Of a stretch of 64,000 nt of DNA, positions 31,921 through 53,653 are shown piece after piece. The stretch is from the IMG/VR virus record IMGVR_UViG_3300027804_002812, positions 128,001 to 192,000 of that record. One strand, given 5' to 3'. The first letter of the stretch is position 1. Each line of letters begins with the position of its first letter. The translations under genes and the position numbers were made by a program. The notes under the pieces were generated by a model. It had not been told where the DNA came from and did not search any database. It saw only the letters and a list, made by a program, of their open reading frames with translations. Source of the stretch: a virus (taxonomy: Duplodnaviria; Caudoviricetes).

Positions 31921-33115
31921 AGTTTCCTTTTGACGGAAATCTTGTCCATCCATTGACCCATATAGGTTTGTCTAATTCCGGTATTACCACGTCAACTTCT
32001 TTATTACTTTTTGATAATGCCAATGTTTTAAGTTGTTCACTTGTTAGAATTGTTGTCGCTCTACTAATGAAATTCAGAGTTGGATTGAATGTTCCAACAG
32101 AATTGTTTTCAAAGACAGATACACCATCTTTTACGAACTGTGCGGTTTCATTACTTTCCAAACTTAAGCCACCTTTCATCCATCCCCAAACTACGCTATT
32201 CTTCATTGTGAATTGGGTAGCTCTTCTAAATCTCAATCCTAAGTTGTGGTTAGCCAATGCTGAAGATGTATTTGGTCCAACCAAAATCATATTGAAAAGT
32301 TTTGGGTGTGTGTAAGGTTGTGCTGCGGATCCTGTTCCATCATTATCACATTCCACACCATTTCCAGCGTCACCACTATCGACAAATTGAGGGTCTCTTT
32401 TTGCCACTCCGTTTGTAATCATCCCTGTATAACCAAAGTCAAAGTCGAAATCATCATCTGCGGTTGCAAATGCGTAAAGATTTTTACCATTTACGGTTCC
32501 ACCAAAGAATTCGAATGCGTCATCGTTAGCATATATTGTTTGAATGTTTTCAAGAATTGTTCCGTTTCCTACACCACCTAAAGTAAGTGCGTTGATTTCA
32601 GAATTCGGCATCGCTGCGATTCCTGCATATTCAATTCTAACGAATCTCAATACACCACTATTATCAGAATCATTTGTTCCACCATAAGGTCTTCCAATAC
32701 CACCTTCGATTGTAGGTTCAGAAGAACGGTTTGTCTTCGCTCTACCTAAAATTACTATACCACCCCAATCACCAGGAGATCGTTGTCCCTCAGGTCTCCC
32801 AGACGTAAATACAATAGGTTTGGATTGGGTTCCTTCCGCAATAATTTGGGAACCTCTTTCAATACATAACGCTCCCTTCTCGGCAACATCAGAAACTATG
32901 GTAGTTCCAGGTTGGATAATAAGTTTTGCTCCATCGGTTACATAAACATATCCTTTAAGTGTCCAAACTTTGTCAGATGTCAAAGTTGTTGTCGTGTTTA
33001 TGTTTCCTGTAAGTGTTGTGGTAGCTGGGACATTCACTGGTCCTTCTCCTCCACCTAAATCTCTATCACAGCTGAAGAGACCTAATGCAATCATAATTGT
33101 TAATAGTTTTTTCAT
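31919..33115 (-). CDS. Bacteroidota-type lipoprotein (beta-helix-like), partner of the TonB receptor
   Basis: lipobox LFSC; GDWGGIVILG, YVRIEY-like and DDAFEFFGG motifs; 4-bp overlap with the receptor gene. Confidence 0.75.
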   Translation of the reverse strand: MKKLLTIMIALGLFSCDRDLGGGEGPVNVPATTTLTGNINTTTTLTSDKVWTLKGYVYVTDGAKLIIQPGTTIVSDVAEKGALCIERGSQIIAEGTQSKPIVFTSGRPEGQRSPGDWGGIVILGRAKTNRSSEPTIEGGIGRPYGGTNDSDNSGVLRFVRIEYAGIAAMPNSEINALTLGGVGNGTILENIQTIYANDDAFEFFGGTVNGKNLYAFATADDDFDFDFGYTGMITNGVAKRDPQFVDSGDAGNGVECDNDGTGSAAQPYTHPKLFNMILVGPNTSSALANHNLGLRFRRATQFTMKNSVVWGWMKGGLSLESNETAQFVKDGVSVFENNSVGTFNPTLNFISRATTILTSEQLKTLALSKSNKEVDVVIPELDKPIWVNGWTRFPSKGN

Positions 33116-35598
33116 AAATTTAGATTTAAGGTTAATGAAACTATTGTTTCGTTATTTGTGTTTATTAAATTACGGTTTGAAATTCTTTGATAGTTTATTG
33201 ATGGTTGTGCAAAAATGTCTGATATTGCCAATTTCAATTCTCCCTTTGGAAGTTTGTGTAAGAAAGTAATATCCAAAACATCTCTACTATTTTCGAATAT
33301 GTCAGGATAACCCTGAAATCCGACAGCGGAAATCCTTTCTCCAATTCTATTGTAGGTTAGATTAAGTGTATTATTTTTCTTGTTGATGTTTACACCTGAA
33401 TTAACAACATAGTTTGATTGTCCTTGTAATTGTCTTTTTACACCATTTACATCAACCTCAGAATTCATAACTGAAGCGTTTGTGTAAAAATCAAACCATC
33501 CATTTATTCTTTTTCTAACTTCCATTTCAACACCATATACAAGAGCGGATTCAGGATTTGAATAAGTTAAAAGTAAGTTGGATGGGACTGACCCATCGGC
33601 AACAACTTGTTCGATTGGGTTTACGAAATTCTTACCAAAAAATGAGAGAGAAATATTTTCTGTGTTTGAAGGATATAATTCGTATTTCAAATCAACATTG
33701 TATATGTCGGTTTTTTTCAAGTTGGAGTTTCCTAATATTTGTGCGTTTCTAACAAAGTCATAATATGCGAAGTTCGCAACTTCTCTGAACTCTGGTCTTG
33801 CCAAGGTCTTACTCAAAGAGAATCTATATTTTGTCTTCTCCAAGTTATAAGAAAGGTTCAATGATGGAAGAATATCCAAATATGTTCTATCCACATTCAC
33901 CTTTTGACCACTGAAATCTGCGGTCTCCACATCAAACAAGTTGTATTCACCTCTTACACCTGTATTGATTTTCCATTTTCCGATTTCGTTCTCATACATC
34001 GTATAAAGATTACCCAAATCAAAGTCAGCGGTATATCTGTCTGTATTGTTGGTTATTTCATCCAATAAATCCGTTGTTTGATATCTGAAAACTCTTGCAT
34101 TAAATCCTCGAATCTTTTTCAGATAACCTCCACCAACTTCAAATTTACCCAAATCTTTTTTCAAGTTTCCGTTGAATGAATTTTCATCCATAACGCTCCA
34201 AAATCTGTAGGTGTCTCTCCATGCCGTTGCAAATGGTTCATTCACACCTAATGATTTGGTGATTGGGTTAATTCTATAATCAGGTTGTTCTCTGAAGATA
34301 TAGTTATATCCGAAATTGAAATCAAAAGTTTCAATATTACCATCAACCTGTGAGTTGATTACCACGTTATTGATATGGTTTGACGCATTACTCAACACAT
34401 CTTGTACGTTGTCAAAGTTTTGTCCTTCTCTTGTTAGGTATGAACTTTCCTTTTGGAAGTTTGCCAATGTTTTCCAACTATATTTGTTTTTACCCAAATA
34501 AGTTAAGTTTAATAATCCATTTGTGGAGAATCTCTGGGTGTATAATCTATCGTTATAGTCATATGCCAATTCAGTGGAAGATTGATAATCCTTTCTCTCA
34601 ATGTTGTTGAGAGTATATGAGTTTCTAATTGTTGAACTGAATAATGAATTGAATTTGTTTTTCACATAACCAAATGAAACTCCTCCATTTAAGTTTGGTA
34701 TGGATTGAAACCCATTTTCAGTTGGGTTTCCTATTTGTTTGGTGAATAGTCGTTTGTCTCCATTACCACTTATTCTGTATTTGTAAGTGGAAGGAAAGGT
34801 TGACGGAAATGGGATCGATTCCACCAGTTTGAAGCCTTGGAAAGTCGAGACAGATCCGATTCCCGTCCCCAAGCTTACGTCCAAAAAATTGTCGGACACC
34901 TCCTTTGTCGATACTTGAACCAATCCTCCACTCCAATCACCAGGTTGGTTTGCCGAAAATGATTTGGAGACCATAATATTATCAATCAAAGAAGTTGGGA
35001 TAATATCAAATGAGAATGCCCGTCTATCAGGCTCTGTGGATGGTAAAGGTGTCTGATTTAATAATGCCGAATTATATCTATCGGCAAGTCCTCGAACCAA
35101 AACAAATTTGTCATTCTGAATTGTGACACCACTTACTCGTTTCAATGCGTCACCCAAATTTCTATCGGGGGTCTTCTTTATGAATTCTATTGATAATCCA
35201 TCGGATACGACAATATTATTTCGTATAGATTTCATAACCGATATATCTGTGACTTTTTGAGCAGTTCCTCTCACAAGTACCTCATTTAACTCTGTATCAG
35301 TTTGTTCGAAAAGGATATCAAAGATTGTAACCGTGGTTACAGTAATAGTGGTTACGAAATCTTTATATCCGATGTATGTTCCTTTTACTTCATAAGTTCC
35401 TTCTTTCAAAGTTATACTGTACTTGGCGTTTTCATCAGAAATTGTTGTGAACTTATTACCATCAGTATCTTGAAATGTTACGTGTGCAAAGTAAATGTCT
35501 TCAGTTTTTGATTTTGTTGTCCCATTGATGGTTATTTCCTTTTGTTGTGAAAACAAGGTCAATGGAAATAGGAGTAAAAAAATTAGTGTCCTAATCAT
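33112..35598 (-). CDS. TonB-dependent outer-membrane receptor
   Basis: signal peptide, N-terminal CarboxypepD-like domain, plug DALKRVSGVT...VRGLADRYN, C-terminal beta-strand LTLNLNL. Confidence 0.9.
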   Translation of the reverse strand: MIRTLIFLLLFPLTLFSQQKEITINGTTKSKTEDIYFAHVTFQDTDGNKFTTISDENAKYSITLKEGTYEVKGTYIGYKDFVTTITVTTVTIFDILFEQTDTELNEVLVRGTAQKVTDISVMKSIRNNIVVSDGLSIEFIKKTPDRNLGDALKRVSGVTIQNDKFVLVRGLADRYNSALLNQTPLPSTEPDRRAFSFDIIPTSLIDNIMVSKSFSANQPGDWSGGLVQVSTKEVSDNFLDVSLGTGIGSVSTFQGFKLVESIPFPSTFPSTYKYRISGNGDKRLFTKQIGNPTENGFQSIPNLNGGVSFGYVKNKFNSLFSSTIRNSYTLNNIERKDYQSSTELAYDYNDRLYTQRFSTNGLLNLTYLGKNKYSWKTLANFQKESSYLTREGQNFDNVQDVLSNASNHINNVVINSQVDGNIETFDFNFGYNYIFREQPDYRINPITKSLGVNEPFATAWRDTYRFWSVMDENSFNGNLKKDLGKFEVGGGYLKKIRGFNARVFRYQTTDLLDEITNNTDRYTADFDLGNLYTMYENEIGKWKINTGVRGEYNLFDVETADFSGQKVNVDRTYLDILPSLNLSYNLEKTKYRFSLSKTLARPEFREVANFAYYDFVRNAQILGNSNLKKTDIYNVDLKYELYPSNTENISLSFFGKNFVNPIEQVVADGSVPSNLLLTYSNPESALVYGVEMEVRKRINGWFDFYTNASVMNSEVDVNGVKRQLQGQSNYVVNSGVNINKKNNTLNLTYNRIGERISAVGFQGYPDIFENSRDVLDITFLHKLPKGELKLAISDIFAQPSINYQRISNRNLINTNNETIVSLTLNLNL

Positions 35599-38621: not shown

Positions 38622-38622
38622 G

Positions 38623-38696
38623 TTGGAATAGGTGGACTCGAACCACCAACCTTTCGCGTATCAGACGAATGCTCTAACCAATTGAGCTATATTCCA
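38623..38696 (-). tRNA. tRNA-Ile(GAT)
   Basis: cloverleaf; loop CT-GAT-AC. Confidence 0.9.
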
Positions 38697-38701
38697 TTAT
38701 G

Positions 38702-38852
38702 CTGTAAGAGATGGATTCGAACCACCACGAGGAGATTCAACAAATAACATATCGCCGGCCGGCTGGTGGTCTACCCCCTCATATTATTTGTCTATTTCTA
38801 ATTCCCCACCCCCGAGACAGGAGGGCTTGTCTGCCAATTTCAACACCTTACA
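38702..38852 (-). tRNA. tRNA-Asp(GTC)-like RNA with about 82-nt variable arm
   Basis: TGTAAGG/TCTTACA acceptor, G73, CCCTC-CTGTCTC-GGGGG anticodon arm, GGTGG-TTCGAAT-CCATC T-arm. Confidence 0.65.
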
Positions 38853-38857
38853 AAAAG

Positions 38858-38942
38858 CAGAGAGTATTGGATTCGAACCAATGCATCCCTTTCGAGATGA
38901 CAGATTAGCAATCTGCTCCTTTAACCACTCAGGCAACTCTCT
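38858..38942 (-). tRNA. tRNA-Ser(GCT)
   Basis: type II cloverleaf; loop TT-GCT-AA; G73. Confidence 0.9.
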
Positions 38943-39017: not shown

Positions 39018-39098
39018 GTTTAGACAGACCTTAGGAGACGTATTATTCTCTTCATTATCCTTGTACTTTAACACCGTGGGAAGCGTGTGTCTGTCTTG

Positions 39099-40547: not shown

Positions 40548-40615
40548 GTGTCAGGACGGGTTTCTAACCCGCTCCTCAGTTAACTACTGTGTGCTGCCAT
40601 TTACACCACCTGACT
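40548..40615 (-). ncRNA. minimal tRNA-like RNA (truncated anticodon arm)
   Basis: GTCAGG/CCTGAC acceptor, D- and T-arms present, only an 18-nt centre. Confidence 0.55.
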
Positions 40616-40680
40616 AAATTTAGATTTCTAAAACTCATCCTCGAAAGGGTAAAGAAACTCCATCTTATTTGTTTTTTGCG

Positions 40681-40801
40681 TAGTCAGGACAGGATTCGAA
40701 CCTGTACGAAGAGTATGTGTGTCTCTTCTCCTATGGGTTTACCTCAAGGGTTTCCACCTGCCATCGCACGTTGTAGCGTCTACCAATTTCGCCACCTGAC
40801 T
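40681..40801 (-). ncRNA. tRNA-like RNA, Leu-type frame with 70-nt structured centre
   Basis: AGTCAGG/CCTGACT-A, GCGAAATTGGTAGACGC D-arm, ACAGG-TTCGAAT-CCTGT T-arm. Confidence 0.7.
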
Positions 40802-40885
40802 ATATTAGGTTAGAGGCTGTTAACCATAAGGTCGTACGAAACATCACTTGTACTTCGTGTCAGGGAATTTCCCATACCTCTAAAG

Positions 40886-41028
40886 TAGTCAGGACAGGAT
40901 TCGAACCTGTATGATTGAAAAGACCAATTTTATTCGGTTCTTCGGGATGGTCAACATATTTAATGTGATGTCTCACGGCCCGATTAATCAATCACCCATT
41001 ACACGTCTACCAATTTCGCCACCTGACC
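40886..41028 (-). ncRNA. tRNA-like RNA, Leu-type frame with 92-nt structured centre
   Basis: same near-identical 5' and 3' blocks as 40681-40801, unrelated centre. Confidence 0.7.
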
Positions 41029-52607: not shown

Positions 52608-53653
52608 ACTTCGACTTAAACATATTGAATGATTACATTGAAAAGGGTTTGGTGGTCAAAAATGACCATCCAACCCTTTCTTTATCTATATACAACTACA
52701 CCAGAAAAACCCAATACGAAAAATTGTGGGACAATATTACCAAAAGTTGTAGAGGATTAATTTTAGATAATCAAGGGAATGTAATCGCGAAGTCATTCGA
52801 CAAGTTTTTCAATTTAGAGGAACATTCTCCTACCGAAATACCCAACGAAGATTTTGAAGTATATGAAAAACTTGATGGGTCTTTGGGTATTTTGTTTTGG
52901 TATCAAGGCAAATGGATTATCGCTAGTAAGGGGTCATTTACTTCAGAACAATCAATTAAGGCAAAACAAATATTAGACGAAAAGTATAATGTGGAACCTA
53001 TCCCAAAAGGATACACTACTTTAGTCGAAATAATTTACCCTCAGAATAGAATCGTATGTGATTACGGTAGTGACGAATCTTTGGTGGTACTATCAATGAT
53101 TAGTAATGCCAACGGTAAAGAACTTGAACATGATTCGTTATTATTGATAAATAAAGAAACTAATATCCCCGTAGTCAAAAAATACGATGGAATTCAAGAC
53201 TACAAGAGTCTTAAATCCACTATCTCCAAAGAAAGGGAGGGTTATGTTATTAAATTCAGAAGTGGTCTTAGAATGAAGATAAAGGGTGAAGATTACGTTT
53301 ATCTTCACAGATTATTGACTGAGTTTTCAAATGTAGATATTTGGGAATATTTGAAAGACAATAAGGATTTGAATGTGTTGTTGGATAGAGTACCTGATGA
53401 ATTTGATTCTTGGGTTAAAAACACCGTAAAAGATTTGGTTGCCAGATATGAAAATATCCTCAAAGATTACACTGAGATATTCAATGAACTGAAATCAAAG
53501 AATTTGGAACAAAAAGATTTTGCTGAGAATGCAAAAGGATATGACCATCCATCAATATTATTCAGTATGTTGAATGGAAAAGATGTTTCACCATTTATTT
53601 GGAAATTAATAAAACCGGAGTACAGTAAACCGTTTTGGCAGAAAGAATCATGA
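52604..53653 (+). CDS. RNA ligase 1 (T4 RnlA-like)
   Basis: CRGLI, KFFN, motif I EKLDGSLG, EII, EGYV, KIK. Confidence 0.88.
   Translation: MNFDLNILNDYIEKGLVVKNDHPTLSLSIYNYTRKTQYEKLWDNITKSCRGLILDNQGNVIAKSFDKFFNLEEHSPTEIPNEDFEVYEKLDGSLGILFWYQGKWIIASKGSFTSEQSIKAKQILDEKYNVEPIPKGYTTLVEIIYPQNRIVCDYGSDESLVVLSMISNANGKELEHDSLLLINKETNIPVVKKYDGIQDYKSLKSTISKEREGYVIKFRSGLRMKIKGEDYVYLHRLLTEFSNVDIWEYLKDNKDLNVLLDRVPDEFDSWVKNTVKDLVARYENILKDYTEIFNELKSKNLEQKDFAENAKGYDHPSILFSMLNGKDVSPFIWKLIKPEYSKPFWQKES

Follow-up and report, generated by a model that had tools for sequence, protein, structure and literature searches.

Class II tRNAs (tRNA-Leu, tRNA-Ser and tRNA-Tyr; RF00005) carry an extra arm of 13–21 nt that folds as one short hairpin. 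The strong identity set of aspartyl-tRNA synthetase (AspRS) consists of G73, G34, U35, C36 and C38, joined in bacteria by G10, and bacterial tRNA-Asp strictly keeps the G1-C72 pair, which helps to position the 3′ end in AspRS (PMC9976931). The first pair on which tRNA-dependent amidotransferases rely is U1-A72 (PMC9976931). Here we describe a 151 nt tRNA-shaped RNA gene, the long-arm RNA, in which an anticodon loop of the Asp type and a U1-A72 pair stand in a class II body with a 79 nt extra arm. It lies on the minus strand at positions 38702–38852 of a 64,000 nt stretch of DNA (the window; positions 128,001–192,000 of IMGVR_UViG_3300027804_002812), which belongs to a 326-kb IMG/VR phage genome (G000, 326,291 bp, 33.7% G+C). 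RNA nt 1 is position 38852, and nt 151 is position 38702, the discriminator G73. In this phage the gene represents a large family of tRNA-shaped RNAs that has escaped annotation; its members combine a core of the class II type, built for the L-shape, with an integral arm of three helices.

A conserved tRNA-shaped RNA with an integral long arm

ARAGORN called no gene at 38702–38852, whether introns were allowed or not. RF00005 gave no match over this interval even at E values up to 10, and at the same limit no Rfam family, intron or ribozyme was matched to the long-arm RNA. When the region was compared with 50,697 phage records by megablast, nothing was returned, and distant blastn gave ordinary tRNA similarity only. 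The single-sequence folding energy of the window copy is unremarkable (z = −0.49) and uninformative. Homologs were reached through an anchor gene 3.1 kb downstream of the RNA, an 828-aa open frame (window 33112–35598, minus strand) for which IMG/VR contigs contain 145 or more relatives (62–93% identity); blastn of the loci fetched via this gene revealed full-length homologs at 71–97% identity. Since search patterns can force invariance, IMG/VR was scanned with three patterns, each of which omitted a different part of the RNA and yielded at least about 120 loci. A hidden Markov model built from 91 curated copies gave 248 nhmmer matches in phage loci, 188 of them distinct, and 165 homologs in bacterial loci. 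The family model (R1) scores the window copy, which is part of its seed, at 149 bits (E 5e-40).

RNAalifold predicted 34 base pairs, of which 25 show compensatory changes. Across 91 distinct copies 97.5% of the cells pair, compared with 75.2% in shuffles (0 of 500 as high) and 42–53% with slid partners, and the covariation score is 0.611 against a maximum of 0.113 for slid partners. Every helix covaries, namely the acceptor and D stems, the anticodon arm at pair 30:40, the extra-arm helices P1, P1b and P2, and the T stem. For example, the D-stem pair 10:25 is AU in 42, GC in 33 and UA in 8 copies, and pair 30:40 occurs as U-G, A-U, U-A, C-G and G-C. The cloverleaf with 7/5 acceptor/T geometry is present throughout, and its core nucleotides U8, A14, G18, G19, A21, T54-Ψ55-C56 and A58 are invariant across the family, as is the T-loop. 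This is a conserved structured RNA gene, far beyond a chance fold. The window copy and its direct neighbors are laid out as follows:

38846..38852, minus strand: acceptor 5′ strand UGUAAGG, pairing with 38703–38709 (UCUUACA); compensatory changes in 6 of 7 pairs, 99.8% paired
38827..38843, minus strand: D arm with a 3-bp stem UUG/CAA and the loop AAAUUGGCAGA; A14, G18, G19 and A21 present
38809..38825, minus strand: anticodon-like arm CCCUC-CUGUCUC-GGGGG; G34 U35 C36 at 38816–38818, followed by U37 and C38
38729..38807, minus strand: 79 nt extra arm (RNA nt 46–124) with P1, P1b, internal loop, P2 and apical domain
38766..38776, minus strand: near-invariant motif GGGUAGACCAC in the apical domain (family consensus GGGUWGACCAC)
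38754..38763, minus strand: perfect 10 nt palindrome GCCGGCCGGC at the arm tip
38710..38726, minus strand: T arm GGUGG-UUCGAAU-CCAUC; compensatory changes in 4 of 5 pairs, T-loop GUUCRA..C invariant
38702, minus strand: discriminator G73
38857..38942, minus strand: tRNA-Ser(GCU), the upstream neighbor, 4 nt before the 5′ end of the long-arm RNA (ARAGORN and Rfam)
38622..38696, minus strand: tRNA-Ile(GAU), the downstream neighbor, 5 nt past G73 (ARAGORN and Rfam)

U8 and G9 directly follow the acceptor 5′ strand, the D loop of the window copy contains no insert, and of the terminal CCA only C74 is encoded in the genome. The extra arm begins with P1 (GGGG/CCUC, RNA nt 46–49 with 121–124) and the 3-bp P1b (AGA/UCU, 54–56 with 118–120), followed by the internal loop AAUAG/UGAA, the 11-bp P2 and the apical domain. 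In relatives the arm reaches about 110 nt.

An earlier note on this DNA had listed complete acceptor, D, anticodon (CCCTC-CTGTCTC-GGGGG) and T arms and a variable region of about 82 nt folded as a long hairpin. The four arms read as it claimed, and the variable region measures 82 nt, 79 of which form the extra arm. Of the hairpin, the long helix ACAAAUAAUAU/AUGUUAUUUGU holds; the GGGGA/UCUCC register at its base does not, as covariation supports GGGG/CCUC plus AGA/UCU. The note had left two readings side by side, a novel long-armed tRNA and an intron in the variable arm. The first is borne out by the homologs, by the conservation of the arm and by the compensatory changes that the homologs show in P1, P1b and P2.

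According to the second reading, the arm would be excised and the halves religated, for example by the phage RNA ligase 1 (Rnl1), to yield a tRNA-Asp of about 72 nt. A 351-aa open frame of the phage does include an RNA ligase domain of the Rnl1 type (PF09511, 66.9 bits; window 52748–53287, plus strand; G000 180748–181287), and without the arm a short variable loop would remain. This reading is nevertheless unsupported, because the arm has a conserved sequence and covarying helices, the D arm is of the class II type, RNA-library contigs run through the arm, and the family occurs in bacteria devoid of Rnl1, which was absent from all five checked Bacteroidota genomes that hold the RNA. The Rfam search, which showed no ribozyme or intron family, also speaks against it. 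RNA-library contigs from two studies carry body and arm contiguously (X16, 38702–38853, starting exactly at G73; X20, 38700–38841), and two others, X15 and X17, cover only short parts of the RNA. No joint skipping the arm was found among these contigs, which cannot exclude rare spliced forms. The arm is an integral conserved domain and most probably not an intron; we consider splicing extremely improbable and are highly confident that the window RNA is a real, non-intronic member of the long-arm family. Rnl1-type ligases are the kind that T4 uses to repair nuclease-cut tRNA, and by this analogy the phage enzyme hints at tRNA-directed host defenses.

The long-arm RNA belongs to a run of 12 tRNAs at 38.6–45.1 kb in which every gene is on the minus strand, and its order with tRNA-Ser(GCU) recurs in several related phage loci. 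Clustering of neighboring genes in 91 phage loci revealed no protein that constantly accompanies the RNA; the recurrent neighbors are syntenic phage genes such as those for PD-(D/E)XK nucleases and a phosphoesterase. In one locus (L222:3806–3912, IMGVR_UViG_3300008108_000181) the copy is truncated: its 3′ two-thirds, with the arm, the T arm and the acceptor 3′ strand, are intact, and unrelated sequence directly after a tRNA gene takes the place of the 5′ portion up to the anticodon stem. This copy represents either a recombination remnant or an RNA with a different 5′ half.

Elsewhere in the window, R1 matched the minus strand at 40681–40801 (43.8 bits), 40886–41028 (38.3 bits) and 40548–40615 (18 bits), and ARAGORN with introns allowed reported 40680–41028 as a tRNA-Leu(UAA) with a 252 nt "intron". 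The 80 nt gap between tRNA-Gln and tRNA-Tyr (39018–39097, minus strand) contains no called gene and is crossed by the RNA-library contig X15 (38977–39309).

A Bacteroidota and phage family with Asp-type nucleotides

The pattern that left the loop unspecified matched at least 120 loci in GTDB species genomes. All 80 loci listed with an organism title belong to Bacteroidota, some of them on complete chromosomes, and the holders include Chitinophaga, Pedobacter, Niastella, Aquirufa, Saprospiraceae, Cyclobacteriaceae, Cytophagaceae and others. The profile built from phage copies matches the bacterial copies end to end with E values down to 2.5e-33, and at least 117 Bacteroidota loci are full-length, 32 of these 117 with two or more copies. 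Among 151 sampled Bacteroidota genomes, R1 gave clear matches in 15 (69–138 bits over 109–212 nt) and a 149 nt match at 54 bits in one more, which brings the holders to about 16. Ordinary class II tRNAs score 45–56 bits on the same model. No paper describing a long-arm GUC family was found in our literature search, and Rfam 15 contains no model for it. This is apparently a large undescribed family common to Bacteroidota and their phages.

In 86 of the 117 bacterial loci, a divergent gene for a 156-aa AsnC-like regulator is located about 160 nt upstream of the RNA. Among the NCBIfam models AsnC matches the regulator best; its score of 167 bits does not reach the equivalog cut-off (227) and compares with 56 bits for Lrp. 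No such gene stands beside the phage copies in the neighbor clustering, and the window copy sits between tRNA-Ser and tRNA-Ile. The other recurrent bacterial neighbors are sufB, sufC and genes for an acyl-CoA ligase and a TrmB-like methyltransferase. The last (PF02390) lies directly downstream of the long-arm RNA in 13 loci, e.g. L414:1339–2100; TrmB makes m7G46 in the variable loop of tRNAs, the region that is expanded in the long-arm RNA.

Canonical tRNA-Asp (loop CUGUCAC, G1-C72) shares the array with the long-arm RNA in at least nine related phage loci and was present in all five bacterial holder genomes checked; none was found among the 12 tRNAs of the window phage. Because the canonical tRNA coexists with it in phage arrays and bacterial genomes, the long-arm RNA is not simply "the" tRNA-Asp.

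G34, U35 and C36 are present in all complete copies found with the loop-unspecified pattern, whose loops vary at positions 32, 33 and 37 and include CAGUCCC, CAGUCAC, CUGUCCC, UCGUCUA and UCGUCUU. In the pooled set, U1 (167/167), A72 (182/182), G73 (178/178) and G2 (174/174) are invariant, the G2-C71 pair is nearly so, and C38 is found in 182 of 187 copies. All five strong Asp determinants are thus conserved in the family; the earlier note had pointed to GUC, C38 and G73 in the window copy, rightly so in view of their identity role (PMC9976931). It had also remarked on an unusual U37, which proved to be a family trait: position 37 is U in 176, C in 8, A in 3 and G in none of the pooled copies, a pyrimidine in 184 of 187. 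Position 33 is U in 132, C in 45 and A in 8, and U33 is therefore lost in 53 of 185. The window copy retains U33 and has U37 instead of a purine, and all 121 bacterial loops read YYGUCUC, with U33 in 116 of them. It is in the phage copies that positions 33 and 37 are relaxed, and positions 34–36 never are. Judged from the conserved nucleotides, the family keeps the AspRS footprint together with a first pair of the amidotransferase type and drops the decoder marks U33 and purine 37.

Outside the tRNA body, the motif-unspecified search showed GGGUWGACCAC to be exact in 79 of 92 distinct copies and replaced by close variants in 10; two copies lack it, and one match was a false hit. In two phage loci, L253 and L279, the motif is lost and a long plain hairpin takes its place, and the GUC loops CGGUCAC and CUGUCCC are kept. 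Two pairings of the motif were considered and rejected. For GAC with the GUC loop, the flanks do not covary with position 33 or 37 and the motif-less copies keep GUC; for GACCAC with G7–G12, positions 10–11 vary and the motif does not.

Candidate roles and phage elaborations

The explanation that we favor, and put forward tentatively, is that the RNA serves as a tRNA mimic recognized by AspRS. The long-arm RNA would be transcribed together with the tRNA array, excised by the host tRNA-processing enzymes (RNase P and 3′ nucleases) and completed with CCA. As G34, U35, C36, C38, G73 and G2-C71 are all kept, host AspRS would recognize the RNA and probably charge it with aspartate; as U33 and purine 37 are not kept, the product may act off the ribosome, as a carrier or mimic. 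More speculatively, it might be amidated by GatCAB, and the phage copies might dimerize or multimerize to fit dimeric partners such as AspRS. That the RNA is not an ordinary decoder seems to us rather probable; charging by AspRS for use off the ribosome is a possibility that we hold with some doubt.

If an RNA that has U1-A72 and lies beside an AsnC-like gene is charged with Asp, a tRNA-dependent conversion of Asp to Asn comes to mind. A role in the conversion of aspartate to asparagine is the leading specific idea; it is possible, and its support is mixed. Gene content was compared in the 151 Bacteroidota genomes, 16 of them holders, as raw counts uncorrected for phylogeny:

gatB: 126–127 of 151 genomes; 16 of 16 holders
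asnA: 4 of 151 genomes; 0 of 16 holders
asnS: 118 of 151 genomes; 16 of 16 holders
glnS: 67 of 151 genomes; 14 of 16 holders
AsnB family: 86 of 151 genomes; 14 of 16 holders

gatB, asnS and glnS occur together in 43 genomes, 14 of which hold the long-arm RNA compared with 2 of the 108 others. The combination resembles the situation in Thermus and Deinococcus, where charging does not require GatCAB. The prediction that the holders are without other asparagine synthetases failed, given the AsnB-family genes in 14 of 16. The asparagine content of the phage proteins (6.75%) is only mildly higher than that of the bacterial loci (5.4%). In six bacterial genomes (G017, G040, G044, G116, G120 and G132), GlnRS is fused to a C-terminal GatB/YqeY-like domain; the open frames concerned (760–1205 aa) give matches to glnS as well as to the C-terminus of gatB. 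A comparable arrangement is found in Deinococcus.

Several points weigh against the favored explanation. The gene-content comparison carries no correction for phylogeny, and gatB, found also in about 110 of 135 non-holders, is nearly ubiquitous in the phylum. With AsnRS in all holders and the AsnB family in 14 of 16, no need for asparagine is demonstrated. The phage genome was searched for AspRS-like, GatB and AsnB genes, and none was found. G10, the further determinant of bacterial tRNA-Asp, is unconserved (G 83, A 75, U 24), and U1-A72 replaces G1-C72 in every copy. The RNA-library contigs, including the one that starts at G73, cannot show ends, CCA or expression level and abundance. Finally, U33 in the window loop CUGUCUC and in 116 of 121 bacterial copies leaves room for decoding.

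The last point bears on the reading of the RNA as a genuine decoding tRNA-Asp isoacceptor with a very long variable arm, e.g. a version resistant to anticodon nucleases. A complete tRNA core and a 7 nt loop with GUC agree with such a function, as does the lack of a canonical tRNA-Asp among the 12 tRNAs of the phage, and nuclease-evading changes in the anticodon loop are known for phage tRNAs (PMC10264068). However, position 37 is almost always a pyrimidine and never G, U33 is lost in more than a quarter of the pooled copies, U1-A72 stands in place of the strictly conserved G1-C72, and a canonical tRNA-Asp is encoded alongside the RNA in at least nine phage arrays and in 5/5 bacterial genomes checked. 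A decoder would have no evident use for the invariant motif in the 79 nt arm, and in cells the gene is associated with a regulator gene and not with tRNA operons. We regard this reading as rather unlikely.

The acceptor end raises another alternative, a substrate of seryl-tRNA synthetase (SerRS) resembling allo-tRNAs, in which the long arm and G73 would make a Ser acceptor with an Asp anticodon. Ser identity in bacteria resides in G73, G2-C71, R4-Y69 and a large variable region (PMC9976931, table); G73, G2-C71 and A4-U69 are present in the long-arm RNA, and allo-tRNAs with a GUC anticodon exist (PMC5389517). Yet position 72 is A and not C, the architecture is 7/5 and not 8/4 or 9/3, and the arm is four times as long as any tRNA-Ser arm, with unpaired nucleotides at its base. 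The anticodon is not read by SerRS, so that nothing would explain why GUC and C38 are strictly conserved, and a SerRS substrate is in our view very improbable.

The most conserved sequence outside the tRNA features lies in the arm, as would be expected if the tRNA body merely provided stability and processing (via RNase P and 3′ nucleases) for a functional payload such as an aptamer or a protein-binding or assembly domain. Other tRNA-shaped RNAs with large inserts in the window (40681–40801 and 40886–41028) and comparable stable RNAs in the T4 tRNA cluster fit this scaffold function too. A mere scaffold, however, would not need GUC, C38, G73 and U1-A72 to be invariant across bacteria and phages, and the two motif-less copies still keep GUC. 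This makes the scaffold improbable.

The phage copies, unlike the cellular ones, carry palindromes at the arm tip and modules in the D loop. A perfect palindrome of at least 8 nt directly follows the motif in 144 of 187 phage copies (77%), compared with 10% of shuffles, and one of at least 10 nt in 102, compared with 2.5% of shuffles; among bacterial copies, 23% have a palindrome of at least 8 nt. There are 35 distinct tip palindromes with 13 different self-complementary central tetranucleotides, and palindromy is thus kept while the letters change. Many of them, such as GCGCGC and AGCCGGCU, are too short for a stable hairpin, which points to pairing between two RNA molecules. GCCGGCCGGC is found once in the 326-kb phage genome, where short palindromes are strongly rare (observed/expected: GATC 0.25, CCGG 0.43, GCGC 0.47, CGCG 0.56, CTAG 0.59) in what looks like avoidance of restriction sites. 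Inserts in the D loop occur in 71 of 183 phage copies and only there; they include 23 palindromes of at least 8 nt and 23 hairpins in which a (G/A)UCUC loop is presented for a second time; neither type occurs in bacterial copies. The RNAcofold dimer energies (ddG −18.9 kcal/mol for the window copy; median −14.8 for phage and −10.8 for bacterial copies) are confounded by generic helix swapping and carry little weight.

The self-complementary tips and D-loop modules suggest that the phage RNA may be dimeric or multivalent. As a self-dimerizing tRNA mimic, two copies would kiss via the arm-tip palindrome and show two Asp-type loops and two U1-A72/G73 ends symmetrically to a dimeric host enzyme, either AspRS or a transamidosome-like particle of AspRS and GatCAB, thereby capturing or redirecting Asp/Asn chemistry off the ribosome. 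Where a palindrome in the D loop is present in addition, chains or closed assemblies could arise. We consider this elaborate form of the proposal unlikely. If it is true, the cages that ROOL and GOLLD build from RNA only would gain, in principle, a small relative based on tRNA.

The same features might serve a multivalent decoy or sponge. Instead of acting as a carrier, such an RNA would imitate tRNA-Asp or the cellular long-arm RNA with high avidity and titrate a host factor that reads the GUC loop. The targets envisaged are AspRS as a dimer, a defense nuclease directed at tRNA-Asp, or the factor with which the cellular RNA is partnered. Only the phage copies multiply the presumed binding elements, with tip palindromes in 77% versus 23% and 23 hairpins and 23 palindromes in D loops, and they relax positions 33 and 37 and never 34–36. 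The Rnl1-type ligase hints, by analogy with the tRNA repair of T4, at defenses that target tRNA, and phage tRNAs neutralizing such defenses are documented (PMC10264068, PMC11464382, PMC11555353). On the other side, no defense nuclease specific to tRNA-Asp was identified here, and sequestration of AspRS would hurt phage translation as well. The acceptor end with U1-A72, G73 and C74 is equally conserved in phage and cellular copies, which a pure anticodon-loop decoy would not need, and the window copy has no D-loop module. We regard a decoy as fairly unlikely.

If the favored explanation of an RNA charged by AspRS and used off the ribosome is true, an abundant RNA resembling tRNA is common to a whole bacterial phylum and its viruses and goes undetected by annotation pipelines, and a new widespread case of tRNA chemistry outside translation would be added, possibly tied to amino-acid sensing through the AsnC-type regulator. 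Phages would copy this RNA and re-engineer it, giving it tips that pair with themselves and loops in duplicate. From this follow testable questions of RNA dimerization, of synthetase capture and of the conflict between phage and host over tRNA pools. tRNA finders and Rfam need a model of the family, and R1 cleanly separates it from class II tRNAs.

Comparison with known systems

Class II tRNAs are the closest in shape. They share with the long-arm RNA the 7-bp acceptor, 5-bp T and 3-bp D stems, the Leu-like D loop, the core tertiary nucleotides and an arm that leaves from the variable position, consistent with their 45–56 bits on R1. They differ in that their arm is a single short hairpin, whereas that of the long-arm RNA spans 79 nt with three helices, an internal loop and the motif; in addition, the long-arm RNA is missed by RF00005 and ARAGORN, and its anticodon is of the Asp type. 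Canonical tRNA-Asp(GUC) is alike in G34 U35 C36, C38, G73 and G2-C71, and the loops CUGUCUC and CUGUCAC differ only at position 37. In contrast, U1-A72, U37, the class II body, the giant arm and the unconserved G10 set the long-arm RNA apart. With tRNA-Asn and tRNA-Gln of the indirect pathway, which employs non-discriminating AspRS or GluRS and GatCAB, it shares U1-A72 and G73, and gatB is present in every sampled holder. Its anticodon is GUC and not GUU, and most holders possess AsnRS, GlnRS and the AsnB family.

The T4 tRNA cluster also contains stable RNAs of about 120–140 nt whose function is unknown, rnaC (species 1, 139 nt) and rnaD (119 nt), and rnaC closes with a T arm like that of a tRNA. 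On a part of rnaC, R1 scores 14.4 bits, the level of ordinary T4 tRNAs, and thus indicates no family relationship; rnaC and rnaD have neither a GUC loop nor a GACCAC motif, and no shared motifs were seen by eye. The allo-tRNAs (Mukai et al., 2017; PMC5389517) are likewise non-canonical and long-armed, with GUC among their commonest anticodons, but have 8/4 or 9/3 geometry and arms of normal length, compared with the 7/5 geometry and giant arm described here. YrlA/bacterial Y RNA (RF02553) was considered and rejected: the match of 19 bits (gathering score 69) spans two adjacent genes, and a search of the phage genome showed no TROVE gene or domain and no TGT.

For the elaborations of the phage copies, the resemblances concern the possible mode of working. 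GC-rich perfect palindromes of 6–12 nt that are exposed at a helix tip and change their letters while keeping self-complementarity resemble dimerization signals such as the HIV-1 DIS, a self-complementary loop, and this pattern is the apparent signature of RNA-RNA homodimerization. ROOL and GOLLD, the self-assembling phage-associated RNAs (PMC12286853), are comparable in this respect only, and the long-arm RNA is far smaller and tRNA-shaped. The tRNA-like operators in the E. coli thrS leader and in the yeast AspRS mRNA (PMC9976931) are anticodon-loop mimics that a synthetase reads via its identity rules, as AspRS might read the long-arm RNA. These operators are embedded in mRNAs and have no acceptor end that is free, whereas the long-arm RNA is a stand-alone molecule with a complete acceptor stem.

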